Below are positions 1-23,596 of a stretch of DNA of 23,596 nucleotides, piece after piece (the first letter of the stretch is position 1; each line of letters starts with the position of its first letter). This DNA comes from Calditrichia bacterium (GTDB lineage: Bacteria > Calditrichota > Calditrichia > RBG-13-44-9). The notes beneath the pieces were generated by a model. That model had not been told where the DNA came from. It did not search any database and saw only the letters and a list, made by a program, of their open reading frames with translations. A program made the position numbers and the translations under genes. The DNA lies in NCBI GenBank assembly GCA_037381445.1, contig JARRQT010000013.1:1-23596 (forward strand), read 5' to 3'.

Positions 1-273
1 TTGCCCATTATCTACGGAATCGTTGGGTTCGGATGGTATAACACCACCTTTGATTTTTCTAGCCAACTGAATGATGCGGGATTCGCCGATGAGACAAAGC
101 AGGAAGTCGGATGGCATTTCGGGGCCGGCGTCGAGCTGCCGGTGGGCTCCAATGTGCGGCTGGCCGGCGACATACGGTACGTCTTTCTGAATTATGATTT
201 TAAAAGCGTTCCGGGGGTGGGAACCAAGAACAATTTCTACCTGATCGCCGGCAGTTTGCTGTTTGGCCTGTAA
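1..273 (+). CDS. Outer-membrane beta-barrel (porin/OmpA-like) protein, C-terminal part only; the 5' end lies outside the window
   Basis: Alternating hydrophobic/Gly beta-strands (YGIVGFGWY, GWHFGAGVELP, LAGDIRYVF, YLIAGSLLFGL*) typical of small beta-barrels. The frame is open from base 1 to TAA at 271-273. Confidence 0.75.
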   Translation: MPIIYGIVGFGWYNTTFDFSSQLNDAGFADETKQEVGWHFGAGVELPVGSNVRLAGDIRYVFLNYDFKSVPGVGTKNNFYLIAGSLLFGL

Positions 274-314
274 TCGTTTCGTCCTCTCTCCTTCGCTGCC
301 AAACAAAATTATTC

Positions 315-353
315 GGCCGGGCGGTTTCCCGTCAGCGGCGAAATTGCCCGGCT
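315..353. other. GC-rich stem-loop between the OMP gene and the antiporter gene
   Basis: GCCGGGCGGTTTC pairs with GAAATTGCCCGGC (13 bp with two G-U pairs), with an inner CCG/CGG pairing. No U-tract follows, so the function is unclear. Confidence 0.4.
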
Positions 354-452
354 GCGACTCATATACATTTCACCGGTCTTCCTGCGAAACCGGGCTCTTT
401 GCCTGGTATATTAATTTGATATTGAATGTTAATCAGAAAAACAGGTGATGTT

Positions 453-2318
453 TTGGCTGAAAATTATTTGGTACAATTGGCAGTCATAATTGTTTTCGGG
501 GTCGTGTCCCAGATGATCGCCTGGCGGTTGAGGCTGCCCTCAATTCTGCTGCTGCTGATCGCCGGTTTTGTGGCCGGCCCGCTAACGGGTTGGGTCCATC
601 CCGATGAAGTCTTCGGAAAGCTGCTGTTCCCGCTGGTCTCGATTTCAGTGGCGGTGATCCTGTACGAAGGCGGCCTGAATTTACGTCTGTCAGAATTGAA
701 AGCGGTCGGAAAAGTGATCCGCAATCTGATATCCATCGGCATCCTGGTTACCTGGATTCTCAGCACCGCTGCCGCATTGCTGATTCTGGGTTTGAGCCTG
801 CCGCTTTCCATGCTTCTGGGTGCGATTCTGGTTGTCACCGGACCCACGGTTATTCTTCCCCTGCTGCGCCAGATCCGGCCCTCGGGCCAGATGAATTCAA
901 TCCTTAAGTGGGAAGGAATGATCAACGATCCCATCGGGGCGCTGCTGGCGGTGCTGGTTTTCGAAGGCACCCTTGCTAGCGGTCTGGGGGAGGCCACCGC
1001 AGCGATATTGGGCGGGCTCCTGAAGACCATATTTTTTGGAAGTCTGATTGGCATTTTGGGTGCCTATACATTCATTTTCCTTTTGAAACGTCAGTTGATT
1101 CCCGACTATCTACAAAACCCGGTTTCCCTGATGATGGTATTCATCGTCTTTGCCTCCTCCAATGTCATACAGCCGGAGAGCGGGCTTTTTTCGGTAACCC
1201 TGCTGGGAATATTCCTGGCCAATCAGAAGAAGGTGACAGTCCATCATATCATCGAATTTAAAGAAAACCTGCGGGTACTGCTCATTTCCGTGCTTTTCAT
1301 TGTTCTGGCTGCCCGCATCAATATTGCCGACCTGAAGATGCTCGACTGGAGAAGCTTTGTGTTCCTGGCCAGTCTGATCTTCCTGATCAGGCCGGCAGCG
1401 GTCTATTCATCGACAATCGGATCGTCCCTCAGCCGCAGGGAAAAATCTTTTTTATGCTGGATGGCTCCCCGCGGCATTGTGGCGGCTGCCGTTTCTTCTC
1501 TCTTCGCTCTGGAAATGGAACGCGCCGGAATTCCTGAAGCTGGTATTCTGGTTCCCCTCACCTTTTTGGTCATTATCGGGACAATTGCCATTTACGGATT
1601 TACCGCCATGCCGGTCGCAAAATGGCTGGGGATAGCCAAACCCAATCCGCAGGGTTGTCTGATCCTGGGTGCCTATCCCTTTGCCCGGGCCATCGCCAGG
1701 AGTTTGAAAAGCAATGGTATCAGGGTGCTGCTGATCGACACCAACTGGCAAAATATTTCGGCCGCCCGGATGGAAGGTCTGCCGACCTATTACGGCAGTA
1801 TTCTTTCCGAATATATTTTCGATGACATCGATCTGACCGGCATCGGAAAGCTGCTGGCACTGAGCGCCAACGAGGAAGTGAATTCCCTTGCTGCGCTGTA
1901 TTTTTCAAAAACTTTCGGCACTAATGAGGTCTTTCAATTGTCTGTTGAGGAGAACGAAGAACAACAGAGTAAGGTGCTATCGAAGGATTTGAGGGGAAAT
2001 ATTCTTTTTGGATTAAATCACACCTATTCGTATTTGTTTGAACGGTTTGGTACGGACAGCACGGTGAAGGCTATGAACATAACCGACCGCTTCCGGGAAG
2101 ACATATTCAGAAAACATGCTGAATCACATAATATTATACCGCTGTTTTTAATTACCGACAATAAAAAACTGGTCATTTATACCAGTGAATCCGGACCGGT
2201 GCCCAAACCCGGACAGAAATTAATCAGCCTGGTAAATGAGAAGGTCAAAGTGGATTTGCATCAAAGCGAGCGAATTGAGCCCGGGCCGGATGTAGCGATC
2301 GAAGACGAGGCAAACTGA
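453..2318 (+). CDS. CPA1-family (NhaP-like) Na+(K+)/H+ antiporter with a C-terminal TrkA-N/RCK domain
   Basis: Many TM helices and the motifs ILYEGGL, VVTGPTVI, WEGMINDPIG and MAPRGIVAAAV. The C-terminal Rossmann-like domain reads LILGAYPFAR...VLLIDTN. The ORF opens at 426; TTG at 453 after AGGTG is the more likely start. Confidence 0.9.
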   Translation: MAENYLVQLAVIIVFGVVSQMIAWRLRLPSILLLLIAGFVAGPLTGWVHPDEVFGKLLFPLVSISVAVILYEGGLNLRLSELKAVGKVIRNLISIGILVTWILSTAAALLILGLSLPLSMLLGAILVVTGPTVILPLLRQIRPSGQMNSILKWEGMINDPIGALLAVLVFEGTLASGLGEATAAILGGLLKTIFFGSLIGILGAYTFIFLLKRQLIPDYLQNPVSLMMVFIVFASSNVIQPESGLFSVTLLGIFLANQKKVTVHHIIEFKENLRVLLISVLFIVLAARINIADLKMLDWRSFVFLASLIFLIRPAAVYSSTIGSSLSRREKSFLCWMAPRGIVAAAVSSLFALEMERAGIPEAGILVPLTFLVIIGTIAIYGFTAMPVAKWLGIAKPNPQGCLILGAYPFARAIARSLKSNGIRVLLIDTNWQNISAARMEGLPTYYGSILSEYIFDDIDLTGIGKLLALSANEEVNSLAALYFSKTFGTNEVFQLSVEENEEQQSKVLSKDLRGNILFGLNHTYSYLFERFGTDSTVKAMNITDRFREDIFRKHAESHNIIPLFLITDNKKLVIYTSESGPVPKPGQKLISLVNEKVKVDLHQSERIEPGPDVAIEDEAN

Positions 2319-8018: not shown

Positions 8019-8990
8019 ATGGATATAAGGCCCGTCTCGCCTCAGGACTTAATAAAAGCAGATTTCTTCTCCTGGCATTACAATGTTTCAATCCCGTTTT
8101 TAAGCCGGTCTGTCCGGGAACGGGGCGTGCTTGTGCCCATCCGGATAATAGATGCGGAAACACCGCTCGTTATTGACGGCCAGCGGCGTCTGCTGGCCGC
8201 GCAGGAAGCCGGGCTGACGCAGATCCCGGCAATCTTCTTTAGGGAAAGCAATAGAAGCGATGCCTTTCTTTCCGCCCTTCATCTGAACATCTTTTCCGGC
8301 AGGCTGAGCATGATGGAAAAATTGCGGATCATCCATCATGCTGCGAGGTTTCTGCCAATGCCGGATATCGGGGAAATTGAAAATCTGCTTGAAATCGGAC
8401 GTTTTCCTTCCCTCTCTTCTTTGACACAAAAACTGATGAAATTGCCGGAATGGGTGCAAGAATATTTTCACAGGACGGATATTCAGTTGCGCCGGCTGGA
8501 ACGCCTGGTCAGCTATCCGTTCCGGGCATACGAGCCATGGTTCATCGTGGCGGAGGAGTTAAATTTCAAGGCGGCAGAACTCATGGTCCTTCTTGAACAG
8601 GTTCAGGATATCTGTTTGCGGGACGGAATTGACCCGGCGGAGCTGTTTTCCTCGCTTTCATTGAATTCCATCCGGAAAGGCCCGATGACTCCCCAGCAAA
8701 AGGTGCAGGAAATCAAGAACAGGGTGAATGAAAAAAGATTCCCGGTATTGATATCCATTCGAAGAACAGTGCAGCAAAACACCCGGGAGATAGAGAAGCG
8801 CTTTTCCGGAAACCTTCATATTGAGTGGGACAATTCACTGGAGCGCCCGGGAGTGTCCCTGAATTTGCGGCTTCGGAATCAGGATATGGTAAAACAGCTA
8901 ATTAATATATTTCAGGAAGAGGACGTCCGCTCCGGACTTAATTCTTTGCTGGATAAAATGAATCATTTACCTGAGGAGGAAGATAAGTAA
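8019..8990 (+). CDS. ParB/Srx N-terminal domain protein
   Basis: LSRSVRERGVLVPI and the arginine patch VIDGQRRLLAA, followed by a helical region of unknown function. Confidence 0.75.
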   Translation: MDIRPVSPQDLIKADFFSWHYNVSIPFLSRSVRERGVLVPIRIIDAETPLVIDGQRRLLAAQEAGLTQIPAIFFRESNRSDAFLSALHLNIFSGRLSMMEKLRIIHHAARFLPMPDIGEIENLLEIGRFPSLSSLTQKLMKLPEWVQEYFHRTDIQLRRLERLVSYPFRAYEPWFIVAEELNFKAAELMVLLEQVQDICLRDGIDPAELFSSLSLNSIRKGPMTPQQKVQEIKNRVNEKRFPVLISIRRTVQQNTREIEKRFSGNLHIEWDNSLERPGVSLNLRLRNQDMVKQLINIFQEEDVRSGLNSLLDKMNHLPEEEDK

Positions 8991-12521: not shown

Positions 12522-15500
12522 ATGTTTATTCGGGAAGACAGAAAGGAAAAAAAGGAATTAATGTCAGGAAGAATGCCTCAATTTGAAATGATATATCCCT
12601 GCGTCAGGCGCTTTTCGTCGGTTCAGTATTCCATGCTGCAAAAAGGTTTGATGATTACCTTTTTGAGAGCAGCCGCATTTTTGCTTGTGCTCTTTCCGAT
12701 ATTTGTCTATTCACAATCCCATCAGCAAATATCTTTTGAACACATTTCCCTGAATGAAGGGCTCAGCCAGAGTTCGGTTCTCTCCGTTATTCAGGATTCG
12801 CACGGCTTCATGTGGTTTGCCACCCAGGAAGGACTGAACAAATTTGACGGATATACTTTCACCATATATAAACACCAACTCAATGATCCCTATTCGCTGT
12901 CCGATGACTGGATAAATGTCATTTTTGAAGACAGGGAAGGCAATTTGTGGGTTGGAACAGCGGGCGGCGGCCTTAACAAGTATGAGTGGGAAAAAGACCG
13001 TTTTATTCAATACCAGCATGTGGAGAATGATCCGCATAGTCTGAGCAACAACTCCATTGTCGCTATTTTTGAAGACAGCAGAGGAAATCTCTGGATCGGG
13101 ACCAACGGGGGCGGGTTGGATCAATTTGTGAAAGATTCGGGACAGTTCATCGCCTATAAATTTGATCCGGAAAATCCCGCCAGTTTGAGCAGCAACCAGG
13201 TATCCTCCATTTGCGAAGATATGAACGGCAATCTCTGGATTGGTACCGCGGATAACGGCTTGAATAAATTTAATCCTGAAACAGGTGTTTTCACTCGGAT
13301 TCAGCATGCCCCGCAGAACCGCAGTTCGCTGGCTGATAACCGCATATTGAGCCTTTATGCCGGAGATGACGGATATTTGTGGGTGGGCACCAACGGCAGC
13401 GGGGCGGATAAACTCTTTGTCGGAGGGGAAGAGGAGAATCAACATGAAAGCAACAATTTCAAACACTACCGTTGGAATATAGATGATTCCAGCAGCTTAA
13501 GCGATGACCGGATCTACAAAATTTACCGGGATCCTGCTGGCACCCTCTGGTTCGGAACGGACAGGGGATTGAATAAATATTTACCCGCCGAGGACGGATT
13601 TATTGCCTATGTATACGATCCCACCAATTCCTCCAGTTTGAGCAACGATTTCGTGCGAGACATTTATGAGGATAATTCGGGCATTCTTTGGGTGGCAACC
13701 TTTGGTGGAGCCCTGAATAAATTTGACAAGAAGAGGGCCGCGTTTATCAATTTTGTAAAGAATCCCGCCAACGCTGGCGGGCTGAGCGACAATAATATCT
13801 GGTGTATCACGAAGGACATCCGGGGGAATATCTGGGTCGGCACAAACAACGGATTGAACCGGATCAACCTGAGGGAAGCGAAAAGAGGCAATATACTAAA
13901 AGCAAAAGTCACACAGTTCTTCCATCAGCCTGAAAATGAACAGAGCAGCCTGAGCCATAATGTGATCCGAGCAATTTTGCAGGACCATTCCGGAAATATA
14001 TGGATTGGCACCGACGGCGGCGGAGTCGATGTCATCTCCGTCAACCAGATTGCCAGGGACAACATAAAATTTATCCATTACCAGAATGATCCCGAAGACT
14101 CAACCAGCCTGTGCGATGACCGCATCCGCCATATTTTCGAAGATGAAAACAATATGATCTGGATCTGTACCTGGGACGGATTGAATATGTTCGACCGTTC
14201 AACCGGGCGGTTTTCCCGTTTCCAGCACCACCCCGAGGATCCGGCCAGTATAAGTGATAACCGGGTGCGGACAATTTTCGAAGATCATTTCGGCGCTTTA
14301 TGGGTGGGAACCTACGGCGGCTTGAATTTATTTGAAAGGAAAACAGGTCGGTTTATCAGTTTTAAAAATGATCCCGGATTTCCATTCAGCATCAGCAATG
14401 ACCGGGTACTCTGTGTTCAAGAAGACAAAGCCGGACGGTTATGGATCGGCACCTATGGTGGCGGACTTAATCAGTTTAACAGGGATGAAATGACCTTTAC
14501 CCGCTATACAGTGGAAGACGGCCTGCCCAATAATGCGGTCTATGGAATTCTGGAAGACGGCAAGGGGAACCTGTGGCTAAGTACCAACAAGGGGATCTCA
14601 AAATTCAATCCCGATACAGGCACCTTCAAGAATTATGATGAAAACGACGGTTTGCAGAGTAATGAATTTAATGGGGGTGCTTATTATAAAAGTAAATCCG
14701 GAATGATGTTTTTTGGCGGAATTAACGGTTTCACCATGTTTTATCCGGACGAAGTTAAAGAAAATCAGCATATCCCCGCCATTGTCTTAACAGATTTCAA
14801 AATGTATGGCAAGTCCGCCAATTTCAACCGGGCGGTTTCGGAGATCAAACAAATTGATCTTTCCTATAAGGAAGATTTTTTCTCCTTTGAGTTTGCGGCC
14901 CTCGATTTTACCAATCCGGAAAAAAATCAATACGCCTATAAACTGGAAGGATTTGATAAAGACTGGATCTATTCAGGGAATCGCCATTATGCCAGCTATA
15001 CAAACCTGGACGGCGGAGATTATACTTTCCGGGTGAAAGGAACCAACAACGATGGCAAATGGAATGAGAAAGGCATCGCCATAAAGCTGCTGATTGAACC
15101 GCCCTTCTGGCAGACCTGGTGGTTCAGAATTCTGTTTGTGTTATTCTTTATTTTACTGGGCTATCTCATTTACCGGATACGGGTGCGCAGTATTCATGCC
15201 CAGAAAAGAAAACTGGAGGTAGAGGTAACGGAAAGGACGCGGGAGCTGAACCAGCGGAATGTTGAATTGGTGCGGGCCAAGAAAGAGACGGATGATATTC
15301 TCAATAATGTGGAAGAAGGGTTGTTTCTGTTGAATTCCGATTATGAAATCGGGGAGCAGTACTCCGCCGCGCTGGAAGAAGTCTTCCGGCAGACCAGCCT
15401 GGATCTGCAGAACATCATTAAGCTGCTGGAAGAAAAGGTCCCGGAAAATATCGTCCGAAATACCCGGGAATATCTTGAATTGATGTTCCGCGACGATGTG

Positions 15501-16727
15501 GATGAACAGGCACTTGTTGATCTGAATCCGCTTACCGAAACCGAATTTCAGTTCACGGATGAAAAAGGAGATTGGCTCAATTCCAAATATCTGACCTTCC
15601 ATTTCAGAAGAATCACAGAGCAGGACCGGATTGTGAATCTTATTGTCACGGTTGAAGATACCACCGAGCAGGTGCTGCTTTCCAAAAAACTGAAGCAGAC
15701 CGAGGAGAACACCAAGAAGCAGATGGAGTGGTTGGTTAACATCCTGCACATCGAACCCCCGCTGCTCAATGAATTCATTGAGGGTGTGCAGGAAGAACTG
15801 GATTATATCGATGGCATCCTCCGACGCCCCGAAGGCAATTATCATGAACTGCTGGAAGAAATGTATCGCTCCATGCACATTATAAAGGGAAATGCCGCCT
15901 TGCTGGATTTGAAGTTTTTTGCCAATAAAGCCCATGATTTTGAGGAGAAAATTATTGAAATCCGGCAAAACCGGGAAATCACCGGCATCGATTTTGTGCC
16001 GCTGGTGCTGCAGTTTGGAAATATCCGCAGCAGTCTGAATGAGATTAAAAAGTTCATTGAAAGGATCACCCAATTCCATGAGCATTTCCGGCCCAAGCGC
16101 AGTTACGAAAGCGAGCTGCTCATCAAATCGCTGAAAAATCTCATCGATAATCTGTCACAGGATCTGGGCAAGGAAGTAAATTTTGTCTTCAACGATTTTG
16201 AAGCGATATCCATCCCCTACCGTTATCGCCTGCTGATAAAGGAGACGTTGATCCAACTGGTGAGGAATTCGATGTACCATGGGATCGAGAGCCGGGATGA
16301 GCGGTTGAGGTCAGCTAAAAATCCAAAGGGGACCGTTTCCGTGATCTCCCAAATAGTCGATGATAATTTTGTTATCAGGTTCAGGGATGATGGCCGGGGG
16401 ATTCAACAAAATGAACTGAGAAAAAGAGCGATGGAATTAGGGATCGCCTCAGAGGCAGAAGTTAATGGCTGGGATGAGGATAAACTGACTGAACTGATTT
16501 TCATGCACGGCGTCAGCACCGCGCATAAAAGCAGTCTGGCAGCTGGCCGGGGAGTGGGGATGGATGCGATTCGGAAAAAATTGGGGAAATTCAGCGGCAG
16601 TATTACCGTCGAGTCGGAAGCCGGAAAATTTTGCGAATTCACCATTACACTGCCCATGAATGGAAAAAAAGAGGCAGAAGCTGCTGAGCCGGCTGAGCTG
16701 GAGGTCAGCGAGGAAATGGGGAATTAA
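12522..16727 (+). CDS. Membrane sensor kinase: Reg_prop beta-propellers, Y_Y_Y, TM, PAS-like, Hpt and CheA-type HATPase, with no CheW domain (class III histidine kinase-like)
   Basis: Signal peptide (true start probably 12633 or 12651); repeated D-x-x-G-x-LW-x-GT-x-x-GL blades; Y_Y_Y (YAYKLEGFDKDW...YTNLDGGDYTFRVKG); PPFWQTWWF followed by a TM helix; ILNNVEEGLFLL (PAS-like); Hpt YRSMHIIKGNA (His1119 of the ORF, CAC at 15876); N-box QLVRNSMYHGIE, G1 DDGRGI, F-box IFMHGVSTA and G2 GRGVGMD. The protein ends shortly after FTITLP. Confidence 0.88.
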   Translation: MFIREDRKEKKELMSGRMPQFEMIYPCVRRFSSVQYSMLQKGLMITFLRAAAFLLVLFPIFVYSQSHQQISFEHISLNEGLSQSSVLSVIQDSHGFMWFATQEGLNKFDGYTFTIYKHQLNDPYSLSDDWINVIFEDREGNLWVGTAGGGLNKYEWEKDRFIQYQHVENDPHSLSNNSIVAIFEDSRGNLWIGTNGGGLDQFVKDSGQFIAYKFDPENPASLSSNQVSSICEDMNGNLWIGTADNGLNKFNPETGVFTRIQHAPQNRSSLADNRILSLYAGDDGYLWVGTNGSGADKLFVGGEEENQHESNNFKHYRWNIDDSSSLSDDRIYKIYRDPAGTLWFGTDRGLNKYLPAEDGFIAYVYDPTNSSSLSNDFVRDIYEDNSGILWVATFGGALNKFDKKRAAFINFVKNPANAGGLSDNNIWCITKDIRGNIWVGTNNGLNRINLREAKRGNILKAKVTQFFHQPENEQSSLSHNVIRAILQDHSGNIWIGTDGGGVDVISVNQIARDNIKFIHYQNDPEDSTSLCDDRIRHIFEDENNMIWICTWDGLNMFDRSTGRFSRFQHHPEDPASISDNRVRTIFEDHFGALWVGTYGGLNLFERKTGRFISFKNDPGFPFSISNDRVLCVQEDKAGRLWIGTYGGGLNQFNRDEMTFTRYTVEDGLPNNAVYGILEDGKGNLWLSTNKGISKFNPDTGTFKNYDENDGLQSNEFNGGAYYKSKSGMMFFGGINGFTMFYPDEVKENQHIPAIVLTDFKMYGKSANFNRAVSEIKQIDLSYKEDFFSFEFAALDFTNPEKNQYAYKLEGFDKDWIYSGNRHYASYTNLDGGDYTFRVKGTNNDGKWNEKGIAIKLLIEPPFWQTWWFRILFVLFFILLGYLIYRIRVRSIHAQKRKLEVEVTERTRELNQRNVELVRAKKETDDILNNVEEGLFLLNSDYEIGEQYSAALEEVFRQTSLDLQNIIKLLEEKVPENIVRNTREYLELMFRDDVDEQALVDLNPLTETEFQFTDEKGDWLNSKYLTFHFRRITEQDRIVNLIVTVEDTTEQVLLSKKLKQTEENTKKQMEWLVNILHIEPPLLNEFIEGVQEELDYIDGILRRPEGNYHELLEEMYRSMHIIKGNAALLDLKFFANKAHDFEEKIIEIRQNREITGIDFVPLVLQFGNIRSSLNEIKKFIERITQFHEHFRPKRSYESELLIKSLKNLIDNLSQDLGKEVNFVFNDFEAISIPYRYRLLIKETLIQLVRNSMYHGIESRDERLRSAKNPKGTVSVISQIVDDNFVIRFRDDGRGIQQNELRKRAMELGIASEAEVNGWDEDKLTELIFMHGVSTAHKSSLAAGRGVGMDAIRKKLGKFSGSITVESEAGKFCEFTITLPMNGKKEAEAAEPAELEVSEEMGN

Positions 16728-16815: not shown

Positions 16816-17196
16816 TTGGACATGGAATCAAAAGTGAAAGTTTTAATCGTTGACGATTCCCTCATCATCAGGCAGGCGATCGAAAAGAACCTGAATGGTT
16901 TTCCTATTGAGATTGTCGGGACGGCAGGGGATGGAAAGAATGCGCTTGAATTATTCACCCAGCACCAGCCGGATGTTGTTACACTGGACATTACCATGCC
17001 GGAAATGGATGGAATCGCTGTACTGGAGCAGATGATGGGACAAAATCCCGCAGTGAAAGTGATGGTGATTACCGCGCTCAAGGATAAGGCAACCGGCCTG
17101 AAAGCCATTCAACTGGGTGCAAAAAGTTATATTACTAAACCGTTTACCCCGGAAAAACTGAAAACTGCATTCGGCAGAATGCTGGAAAAGAATTAA
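16816..17196 (+). CDS. Single-domain CheY-like response regulator
   Basis: VLIVDDS, the phosphoacceptor in VTLDITMPEMDG, VITAL and YITKPF. No output domain. ATG at 16822 is an alternative start. Confidence 0.93.
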   Translation: MDMESKVKVLIVDDSLIIRQAIEKNLNGFPIEIVGTAGDGKNALELFTQHQPDVVTLDITMPEMDGIAVLEQMMGQNPAVKVMVITALKDKATGLKAIQLGAKSYITKPFTPEKLKTAFGRMLEKN

Positions 17197-17219: not shown

Positions 17220-17666
17220 ATGAATGAGACTGATCTGCATTTTTTTATCGATAGCACAATAAATTATTTTGAAGAGGTTACCGGGGAAAAAGCGTTGACA
17301 GGCATTCCATATATTAAGGGAAAAGAGCCTGTCATCCTGGAGTATTCGGGAATTATTGGAATTTCGGGCAAGAGAAAGGGTTGCGTGTATTTCACGACAA
17401 CGCAGGCAATGCTGGAGTCGCTGGCCCACGAGATACTGGGAATTACCGATGCCGCCACCGAGACTGTCAAGGATCTGGCCGGTGAGCTGGCCAATACCAT
17501 CTCGGGTAATGTGCGGGAGGCTTATGGCAGCAGCTTTATGATTTCGGTGCCGGTAGTTGTCGAAGGAAAAGCAAAAGATATCCGGCTTCCCGAAAACGTA
17601 CAGTCTTTTGTCATTCCCATTACCTGGAAGGATTTTAAATCGTTTCTGGTGGTATGTCTGGAGTAA
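17220..17666 (+). CDS. cheX: CheX-family CheY-P phosphatase
   Basis: YSGIIGISG-x-x-KG, the catalytic E-x-x-N motif in DLAGELANTISGN, and ISVPVVVEG; 148 aa; RBS AGGAG. Confidence 0.88.
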   Translation: MNETDLHFFIDSTINYFEEVTGEKALTGIPYIKGKEPVILEYSGIIGISGKRKGCVYFTTTQAMLESLAHEILGITDAATETVKDLAGELANTISGNVREAYGSSFMISVPVVVEGKAKDIRLPENVQSFVIPITWKDFKSFLVVCLE

Positions 17667-17763: not shown

Positions 17764-19242
17764 ATGAATCACAGGGATGAAAACATTAACAGCACAGAGT
17801 CAAATGGCGAGCTCCGCGGTGTTCACACCGACGGAAATGGTTCTCCGGCAAATATGACGAAGGTTATTCTTCGCTATATTGAAGAAGGAGCATTCTTCCT
17901 GGATTCACAATTTAATTTCGGCGAATCATTTTCAGCTGCCCTTGAAGAAATCCTTTGTGTGAAGGAATTGAAAGGGACAAATTTTCTCTCTCTACTTGAA
18001 AACCGGGTACCGGAAGATATTATCACGAATACCCGGGAGTTTTTGGAAATCATGTTCCGTCCGGATTTGGAGGAAGAGGAGATCTATGAATTAAATCCCC
18101 TGGCTGAGACTGAATTCTTCTATGAAGATGAATGGGGAATGTGGACTTCCTCAAAAACCTTGTCCTTCAGGTTTAAGCGGGTCGTGGAGGGTGGAAAAAT
18201 TGTTGCGCTTTTTTCAACTGTCAGGGATTTGTCCGAAGAGAGACGGCTGAATCAAAAGCTCAAGCAGATTGAAGATCACACCCAAAAACAGATGGAATGG
18301 CTTGTCAACATCCTGCATGTGGAGCCGGACCTGCTGCGGGATTTTTTCGTTGGCGTCGAGCATGAAATGGAAAATGTCGATAACGTCCTAAAGAATACAA
18401 GAGAAACCAAAAAATATTTTGAGGTGCTGGAAAATATCTACCGCTCCCTGTATATCATTAAAGGCAATGCTTCCCTGCTGGATTTGAAATTTTTCAGCGA
18501 TAAAGCCAGTCACTTTCTGGAAAAGATTGTAAAAATCAAAGATGAATCTGAAATTGACGGAAATGATTTCGTTCCTATTGTAATTGAACTTGGGGAACTG
18601 CGCAGCACACTGGAAGAGATTAAGACTATATTTCAGAGGATCAGCCAGTTTCATAATCACTTTCGCGCCAAACGGAGTTACGAAAGCGAACTGCTGGTCA
18701 ATTCCCTGAAAAACCTGACCCAGAGTCTCAGCCGGCAGCTGAAAAAGCCGGTGTCATTTGATTATAAAGATTTTGATGCGCTTTCTATTCCCTATACCTA
18801 TCGCCAGATGGTCCGGGATGTGCTGTTTCTCCTGATCCGGAATGCACTGCTGTACGGAATTGAGACTCGGGAGGAACGCAGGTCTGCAAACAAAAGCAAT
18901 ATCGCCACCATCAAGATTATCACTTTTACTGATGAACGCTTTCTGGGATTGGTGCTGCGTCACGATGGCAGAATTGAGAGGATAGAGAGGCTGCTGCAAA
19001 AAATGATTACCGCAGATTATGAATCTGAAGAGGAACGCCGCAACTGGGAGGGAATTTCTGTGAGCCAGTTGCTGTTCATGCCTAATATGTCTGTGGGGGA
19101 CGAGCAGGAAATACTGGCAAATTCTGCCATGGACATTGAAATCCTGAAGCGAAAATTGAAGGAAAAAGGCGGTCGCCTGAAAATAACCTTCACCAGCGAA
19201 GAATTCTGTGAATTTATTGTTTTCCTGCCATTAAGGGCCTGA
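17764..19242 (+). CDS. Soluble PAS-like/Hpt/HATPase paralogue of the upstream kinase with degenerate catalytic motifs (predicted pseudokinase)
   Basis: Collinear with the kinase's cytoplasmic half (ELNPLAETEF vs DLNPLTETEF, QMEWLVNILHVEP vs ...HIEP, identical KRSYESELL). The phospho-His is replaced by Tyr (YRSLYIIKGNA), G1 reads HDGRIE and G2 reads NSAMDI. The frame is an intact 492 aa. Confidence 0.85.
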   Translation: MNHRDENINSTESNGELRGVHTDGNGSPANMTKVILRYIEEGAFFLDSQFNFGESFSAALEEILCVKELKGTNFLSLLENRVPEDIITNTREFLEIMFRPDLEEEEIYELNPLAETEFFYEDEWGMWTSSKTLSFRFKRVVEGGKIVALFSTVRDLSEERRLNQKLKQIEDHTQKQMEWLVNILHVEPDLLRDFFVGVEHEMENVDNVLKNTRETKKYFEVLENIYRSLYIIKGNASLLDLKFFSDKASHFLEKIVKIKDESEIDGNDFVPIVIELGELRSTLEEIKTIFQRISQFHNHFRAKRSYESELLVNSLKNLTQSLSRQLKKPVSFDYKDFDALSIPYTYRQMVRDVLFLLIRNALLYGIETREERRSANKSNIATIKIITFTDERFLGLVLRHDGRIERIERLLQKMITADYESEEERRNWEGISVSQLLFMPNMSVGDEQEILANSAMDIEILKRKLKEKGGRLKITFTSEEFCEFIVFLPLRA

Positions 19243-23256: not shown

Positions 23257-23596
23257 ATGCGAAAATTAGCAGCAGTTGTTTTGGTATTGTGCCTGATGCT
23301 GAGCATGAGTGTTTTTGGTAGCAATAGTTCAAATGCAGCTCATCTCGAAAAATCGGTAGTAGAACAGATTTCTAAAATTTCCACTTGGAGCCCGGTAGTA
23401 CCGCCGCACATTCCGAAGTTGGCTACCTGGAGCCCGGTAGTACCGCCGCATATTCCGAAGCTGGCCACCTGGAGCCCGGTAGTACCGCCGCACATCCCGA
23501 AGCTGGCCACCTGGAGTCCGGTAGTACCGCCGCACATTCCGAAGTTGGCCACCTGGAGCCCGGTAGTACCGCCGCACATTCCGAAGTTGGCTACTT
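23257..23596 (+). CDS. Secreted tandem-repeat peptide precursor, 3'-truncated by the window edge and absent from the ORF track
   Basis: RBS GAGGAGG at 23244-23250 and ATG at 23257. Translation: MRKLAAVVLVLCLMLSMSVFGSNSSNAAHLEKSVVEQISKIS-(TWSPVVPPHIPKLA)x5-T..., with no stop codon in the window. All differences between repeats are synonymous in this frame. Confidence 0.88.
   Translation, partial: MRKLAAVVLVLCLMLSMSVFGSNSSNAAHLEKSVVEQISKISTWSPVVPPHIPKLATWSPVVPPHIPKLATWSPVVPPHIPKLATWSPVVPPHIPKLATWSPVVPPHIPKLAT
23383..23596 (+). repeat. 42-bp coding tandem repeat, five complete units plus the start of a sixth
   Basis: Units start at 23383, 23425, 23467, 23509, 23551 and 23593. Consensus ACYTGGAGYCCGGTAGTACCGCCGCAYATYCCGAAGYTGGCY, with no spacers. 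Confidence 0.97.

Follow-up and report, generated by a model that had tools for sequence, protein, structure and literature searches.

The fourth and last gene of an operon in the window (the whole stretch of DNA that was analysed, 23,596 nt) encodes a soluble relative of a CheA-like histidine kinase, which is predicted to be catalytically dead because its phospho-histidine and most of its ATP-binding residues have been lost. The gene is old, real and under selection, and we are nearly certain that its product is a functional pseudokinase of some kind. Its likely partner is the CheX phosphatase encoded at 17220..17666, and the proposal that this pseudokinase of a class III system binds CheX and tunes the dephosphorylation of CheY has, in our estimate, about an even chance of being correct.

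The pseudokinase gene and its operon

The four genes lie on the same strand, a sensor kinase being followed by a single-domain CheY, CheX and, at the end, the pseudokinase. The genes and the domains of the pseudokinase are as follows.

12522..16727, + strand: membrane sensor kinase, 1401 aa, with Reg_prop propellers, Y_Y_Y, TM, PAS-like domain, Hpt (His1119) and CheA-type ATPase; catalytic motifs intact
16822..17196, + strand: CheY-like response regulator, single domain; receiver motifs intact (DD, phospho-Asp in LDITMP, Thr, Lys)
17220..17666, + strand: CheX phosphatase with the E-x-x-N motif (Glu89, Asn92), both residues invariant in 31 of 31 aligned sequences
17764..19242, + strand: pseudokinase, 492 aa, soluble; ORF with an intact frame
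17857..18228, + strand: PAS-like domain of the pseudokinase (residues 32-155), assigned from predicted secondary structure, without a Pfam match
18232..18312, + strand: linker helix (residues 157-183), inside the region most similar to its own kinase (0.59 over residues 159-186)
18325..18654, + strand: Hpt-like helical bundle (residues 188-297), with Tyr230 (TAT, 18451-18453) at the phospho-His site
18673..19230, + strand: degenerate CheA-P4-like ATPase domain (residues 304-489), which holds most of the family-specific conserved residues

The start codon of the kinase is the first one given by the ORF finder, and the true start may be further in. The domain matches of this protein comprise Reg_prop, Y_Y_Y, HATPase_c and a weak Hpt (E 6e-4, below the cut-off), with no CheW match, and by its sequence it fits the class III histidine kinases, which reportedly combine a sensor, an Hpt placed before a CheA-type ATPase and the lack of a CheW domain. 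Promoter and terminator scans gave counts near chance (7 versus 4.6 and 4 versus 3.0, respectively). A second copy of the pseudokinase was not found in the source genome. On contig C39 of the same genome (G000), cheY and cheX genes of the same subfamily form a further pair that lacks an upstream kinase (positions 78-885, minus strand); only a few dozen bases of contig remain past this second cheX, and another pseudokinase could follow there unseen. Elsewhere in the window, a protein with a ParB N-terminal domain, the rest of which matches no assigned domain, is encoded at 8019-8990 (+), and an ORF at 23257-23596 (+) has a signal-peptide-like start, contains five tandem 42-nt repeats (a 14-residue Pro/Trp-rich unit, 93% matches, no Pfam match) and runs off the contig end; it looks like a repeated-core peptide precursor or a repeat surface protein.

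The earlier note on this DNA had described the gene as a duplicate of the cytoplasmic half of the kinase, and the comparison bears this out: within an intact frame, residues 32-492 of the pseudokinase match residues 923-1381 of the kinase with 209 of 462 positions identical (45%; BLASTP, E 3e-134), and the sensor kinase at 12522..16727 is, as judged from this similarity, the parent of the duplication. The sensor and the membrane-spanning region are absent from the copy, as the note had it; the best 19-residue hydropathy in the pseudokinase is 1.2, with no TM segment, whereas the kinase exceeds 2.0 at positions 42-45 and 865-870. All the motif pairs quoted in the note are present in the sequence, as are the two codons of the phosphorylation site, His1119 being encoded in the kinase by CAC at 15876 and its counterpart Tyr230 by TAT at 18451. 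The near identity of the non-catalytic blocks, also claimed there, holds for short blocks but not for whole regions: the mean identity to the own kinase over 9 genomes is 0.43 in the PAS-like domain, 0.59 in the linker, 0.41 in the Hpt and 0.29 in the ATPase-like domain, and since these regional averages are only 0.29-0.59, the duplication is an old one.

As for the loss of the ATP-binding boxes, it is extensive, though one element has been spared. The G1 Asp is replaced by His400 (CAC, 18961-18963), the second G1 Gly by Ile404 and the His at N+4 by Tyr364, and all three G2 glycines are gone, a remnant of G2 being left at 19114-19143; the N-box Asn, however, is retained as Asn360. Two further Hpt residues that are conserved in kinases have disappeared from the pseudokinase (AHDFEE in the kinase versus ASHFLE), and we take them to correspond to His64 and Glu67 of CheA. 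A Pfam search of the pseudokinase recovered no real family (best E 0.049), with neither a HisKA match nor a CheW domain. In its AlphaFold model (pLDDT 78.7, pTM 0.44), a PAS-like domain comes first, followed by a long helix and a helical bundle, and an ATPase-like domain ends the chain; the lid of this last domain (residues 445-454) is of low confidence. The fold C-terminal to the helical Hpt bundle is of the CheA-P4 type, as Foldseek matched it to CheA P4 chains with E about 1e-8 and a TM score by target of 0.66-0.71; CheA family matches were also found.

Family, selection and conservation

The family was collected by a protein search, which gave 85 matches, and by a representative search, which added more (the best 150 were listed). 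His at G1 was present in 99 of the 262 rows of the alignment, and 90 family rows remained once short and identical ones had been dropped. Out of six ATP-site positions, these 90 distinct rows keep none (47 rows), one (40) or two (3), with the reservation that for one of the positions the result is circular, the family having been chosen by His at G1; among the other rows, five or six positions are retained in 149 of 154. Of the 90 rows, 42 still have the N-box Asn. All 99 rows with the family G1 motif (first count) are shorter than 520 aa, and no sensor-fused longer forms were present among 490 candidates retrieved with query residues 330-492 at E 1e-8, which is weak evidence. In a tree built without the motif columns, the pseudokinases form one clade with an SH-like support of 100 (95 of 251 rows, 11 short ones having been set aside), and a second tree without these columns recovered the same clade (20 of 40 chosen rows, SH-aLRT 100). 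The taxon-labelled copies all belong to Calditrichota; in a GTDB scan, the pseudokinase was present in 20 of 22 loci, 19 of them titled as Calditrichota group and one without a taxon, the other two loci being of the kinase type. Several degenerate members without the His and with an incomplete ATP site (L043:11472-15434 in G039, L046:6033-9035 in G020, P0112, P0125, P0156 and P0191), some of them still fused to a sensor, fall outside this clade, and inactivation therefore seems to have happened several times.

The replacement of His by Tyr, which the earlier note pointed out in this copy, did not hold as a trait of the family. The phospho-His site is occupied by His in 36 of the 90 family rows, by Tyr in 25, by Phe in 17 and by other residues in 12, and since many members have His or Phe there, Tyr is not a family signature and a DivL-like Tyr does not define the group. 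The orthologues gave a divided answer on the two losses whose conservation the note had proposed to check: His, whose retention the note had counted against its reading, is kept in about 40% of the family, but the G boxes are kept in none. In the subclade to which this gene belongs (43 rows), the site is Tyr in 23 rows, Phe in 17, His in 2 and Leu in 1, Lys/Arg at +3 and Gly at +4 are retained in 43 of 43, and the Asn360 position in 42. The second subclade (47 rows) was split off on the position of the N-box Asn, which is lost in all 47; it has His at the site in 34 rows, mostly Ser (30 rows) or Asn at +4, a nearby Glu in 40 and Lys/Arg at +3 in only 14. Near the old pocket, Tyr364, His400, Arg406 and Arg409 are 91-100% conserved in the family (His400 by definition). 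One member (L039 / L063:3136-5123, genome G003) has His at the site though it is nested among Tyr/Phe relatives; the CheX of G003 has altered residues around E-x-x-N, and both peculiarities coincide with a missing kinase and CheY.

The pseudokinase is present in 15 of 41 related genomes, and its frame is intact in 13 of the 15. In the 17 printed pairs out of 66, pS is 0.69-0.87 (saturated) versus a pN of 0.11-0.39; dN/dS could be estimated for only two of these 17 pairs (0.057 and 0.298), and because the remaining pairs are saturated, the comparison is given as pN and pS. Across 8 genomes of one family, the pseudokinases resemble each other more closely than the kinases do in 28 of 28 pairs (0.66 versus 0.54), which are not mutually independent. 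In the same 8 genomes, the dead ATPase domain reaches an identity of 0.69 versus 0.49 in the kinase and the preceding helix 0.78 versus 0.54, while the PAS-like part shows no such gap (11 of 28 pairs). Of the 35 family-specific conserved positions, 19 fall in the dead ATPase domain; family-specific residues there include Tyr364, His400, Arg406, Arg409, Gly430 and Thr477-Ser478-Glu479. The conservation of a dead domain above that of its live parent suggests that it has acquired a new binding surface.

The view of the earlier note that this is a dedicated pseudokinase kept by selection is well founded in the intact frames, the saturated pS with low pN and the clade-wide loss of the ATP site. That the gene is merely a decaying duplicate is hardly credible. 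Three copies are indeed interrupted, by a stop in G016 (L035:5594-5596) and by frameshifts in G039 and L066, but the decay of a useless gene agrees poorly with 13 intact frames out of 15, with low pN at saturated pS, with conservation above that of the active kinase and with the descent of all copies from one old clade; moreover, in L066 the adjacent kinase is also in pieces, which suggests an assembly error there. The frameshifted pseudokinases of L065 and L066 come from two bins, and these frameshifts, as well as the in-frame stops in the pseudokinase of G016 and in cheX of G012 (L057:6755-6757), may be either real or assembly errors.

Linkage to CheX and possible roles

The gene cheX lies directly upstream of the pseudokinase in 15 of 15 genomes and in all 50 loci with at least 300 nt of upstream sequence (52 examined), a count that includes redundant loci, three truncated ORFs taken by position and one locus with a CheX tail only, and that covers neither loci truncated at their 5' end nor loci with a kinase only. 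The cognate kinase adjoins the pseudokinase in 12 of the 15 genomes; it was not found in G003, G026 and G030, whose assemblies are 90-95% complete, and a search of G003 at E 1e-24 gave no cognate CheY either. G026 and G030 retain cheY-cheX-pseudokinase, while in G003 (95% complete) cheX and the pseudokinase stand in the middle of a contig, preceded by a DAHP synthase gene that is read from the opposite strand. The partners proposed by the earlier note, the kinase and CheY, are each missing from some pseudokinase-bearing genomes; CheX, which the note did not put forward as a partner, is never missing.

In evolutionary distances over 22 four-gene loci, the pseudokinase correlates best with CheX, at r 0.95 (partial 0.70, jackknife 0.65-0.74), with CheY at r 0.89 (partial 0.28) and with the kinase at r 0.72 (partial 0.12), the loci being kin and not independent of each other. 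Both the linkage and the correlation could arise without contact, since adjacent genes are inherited and deleted together, and turnover alone may have lowered the value for the kinase, because G037 and G039 carry two kinases with different sensors. The second operon kinase of these genomes (L042:8132-11365 in G037, L043:7597-11412 in G039) has an input part composed of a ROK-family domain, PAS and GAF, and by its domains is probably a cytoplasmic sugar-sensing CheA-like kinase. Kinases of the family also occur without a pseudokinase (G020, G022, G029, G031 and G038). In G029 one locus (L044:3469-7771) contains the kinase, cheY and two tandem cheX genes, and no pseudokinase was found in the genome; as CheX of the same type occurs there without it, CheX does not need the pseudokinase.

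One complex was modelled, namely two CheX chains with residues 28-492 of the pseudokinase, CheX having been picked beforehand from the genomic evidence. The ipSAE was 0.51 (0.50, 0.55, 0.51) versus 0.05 for the best of three controls, at least 87% of the contacts recur between runs, and the pLDDT of the partners is at least 73. Of the calibration pairs, 116 of 157 solved ones and 2 of 215 mismatched ones attain the ipSAE mark, counts that are only rough for a job unlike those of the calibration; at values up to 0.60, it is attained by only 18 of the 157 solved pairs plus both mismatches. A value of 0.51, here reported with no interface, belongs to a band in which models are wrong more often than they are right, except where the guess was already a likely one, and the model gives weak support to the binding of a CheX dimer by the pseudokinase. 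The entries of five solved CheX relatives name no partners, and a similar complex may be present in the PDB.

In the mechanism that we propose, the kinase would phosphorylate CheY and CheX would remove the phosphate, as expected from knowledge of these families and from the intact motifs. The pseudokinase would contact the CheX dimer, to which the genomic evidence and the weak model point, and would serve as a scaffold or regulatory subunit setting the rate of CheY dephosphorylation; its effect on CheX may be stimulation, inhibition or mere localisation. The His-less Hpt surface with its Lys/Arg at +3 and Gly at +4 could hold CheY for CheX while taking no phosphate, and a contact with the kinase via the shared linker helix may add to CheX binding. 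In G003, tuning of CheY cannot be the whole story, since the cognate CheY was not found there. A bolder version of this scheme, which we put forward tentatively and which is rather less probable than not, is that CheX has acquired a dedicated subunit for docking and regulation in the form of a dead ATPase domain, and that the CheX-pseudokinase module, so far seen only in Calditrichota, persists after both the kinase and CheY are lost and delivers the output of a CheY pathway in cells that have neither flagella nor retractile pili. Class III histidine kinase systems reportedly co-occur with type IV pilus motility. PilT (TIGR01420, E 1e-100; a marker other than that of the original class III paper) is present in 5 of the 15 pseudokinase genomes, and neither FliG nor PilT was found in 9 of them, the single-contig G012 included, so motility need not be what the pathway controls. 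A flagellar or a pilus output was among the possibilities weighed, and the distribution of the genes requires neither. The pseudokinase itself is a candidate for the pathway output.

Other roles have been weighed against the binding of CheX. The pseudokinase might act mainly on the kinase, forming with it a mixed dimer via the PAS-like domain and the linker and damping or relaying its activity. The linker is the region in which the pseudokinase is most alike to its own kinase (0.59), 12 of 15 genomes have a kinase gene in the operon of the pseudokinase, and for DivL an action on a second kinase, CckA, has been proposed (PMC4211667); nevertheless, an intact pseudokinase persists in 3 of the 15 genomes where the cognate kinase was not found, the partial distance correlation is 0.12, and conservation peaks in the dead ATPase domain, which is the least kinase-like part (0.29), so that we consider a role centred on the kinase unlikely. 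Similarly doubtful is that the pseudokinase works like DivL as a reader or sink of CheY~P and is the output of the pathway, with CheY docking on the His-less Hpt. Such docking would agree with Tyr or Phe in 40 of the 43 rows of the subclade and with the invariable +3 and +4 residues (43 of 43), with the presence of G003, a genome that yielded no cognate CheY, among the two His rows, and with a CheY that has no output domain and no evident motor target (9 of 15 genomes without FliG and PilT). However, G003 retains the pseudokinase without the cognate CheY, the +3 and +4 residues are changed in the other subclade, and the partial correlation is 0.28 with CheY versus 0.70 with CheX.

Phosphotransfer in trans from the kinase or from CheY~P, in the manner of CheA3 with CheA4, could concern the His-bearing subclade but not the present copy, which has Tyr230. 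In the second subclade, His (34 of 47), Ser at +4 (30) and the nearby Glu (40) speak for it, Ser at +4 having kept 81% of relay activity in Ypd1 (PMC6341664), and CheA3 pairing a functional Hpt with a kinase domain that is dead (PMC10782961); still, with 13 of 47 rows lacking His and only 14 of 47 carrying Lys/Arg at +3, the Hpt of this subclade looks like a drifting site, and we regard such transfer as quite improbable. Even less probable is a non-standard enzyme, either phosphorylated on Tyr230 or binding a nucleotide or another ligand in a remodelled pocket. The strong conservation of His400, Tyr364, Arg406 and Arg409 near the old pocket (91-100%, His400 by definition) and of Asn360 in 42 of 43 rows of the subclade would suit a ligand, but the G1 Asp and the G2 glycines are gone and none of the 47 rows of the other subclade (which was split on that position) has the N-box Asn; phosphorylation of the Tyr was rejected, as Phe replaces it in 17 of 43 rows. 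Regulation of the kinase, reading or sequestering of CheY~P and phosphotransfer in trans can all be true together.

Comparison with known systems

To our knowledge, few bacterial pseudo-histidine kinases have been characterised, and those known have either a response regulator or a different kinase as their target; among them the present family is notable for belonging to the CheW-less CheA-like class and for its link to CheX. Look-alikes with Hpt and HATPase_c occur in several phyla. No description of the pseudokinase family was found in the literature searched, outside which lie most subscription journals, and we provisionally regard the family as undescribed. A contact between CheX and CheA has reportedly been noted in Treponema; it was not found in the literature searched and is given no weight here. 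If the pseudokinase is tied to CheX, a kinase fold has been reused for control of the phosphatase arm, and CheX has gained a dedicated regulatory subunit. The parts are small and, the sensor apart, soluble, and could be rebuilt in vitro, which would make the little-studied CheW-less CheA-like kinases and their output directly testable; the interest is limited by the narrow taxonomic range, the uncultured hosts and the putative nature of the partner.

RcsD, a membrane-bound protein of the DHp type in which a dead kinase core is joined to a working Hpt of a phosphorelay, and AHP6, a plant pseudo-Hpt consisting of the Hpt alone, resemble the pseudokinase in being partly dead two-component proteins with dedicated roles; we know of no tie between either of them and CheX. 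The class III histidine kinases of Adebali et al. (2017, J Bacteriol 199:e00218-17), as cited in PMC6501615, share the layout of the parent kinase, while the pseudokinase differs from them in having neither the membrane sensor nor the catalytic residues.

DivL of Caulobacter crescentus, the only pseudokinase named in the available part of a two-component review (PMC12471899), likewise has a kinase fold without kinase activity, a Tyr at the site (as in this copy) and PAS upstream; it binds TNP-ATP weakly, and its Y550H variant regains DivK~P-stimulated labelling (all from PMC4211667). DivL is, however, of the conventional DHp type according to the same source, whereas our protein is of the Hpt/CheA type without HisKA; in addition, its G boxes are gone, Tyr is found in only 25 of 90 family rows, and its constant neighbour is a phosphatase. 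Another counterpart is CheA3 of Cereibacter (Rhodobacter) sphaeroides, which, as described in PMC10782961 and PMC6829392, is also a CheA duplicate with a dead ATPase domain and His-less Hpts, is kept beside an active paralogue and is tied to the dephosphorylation of CheY. Unlike the pseudokinase, CheA3 has one working Hpt and a CheW domain, resides in receptor arrays and is itself the phosphatase (same sources), while the pseudokinase has a single Hpt with Tyr230, no CheW domain and a separate CheX.
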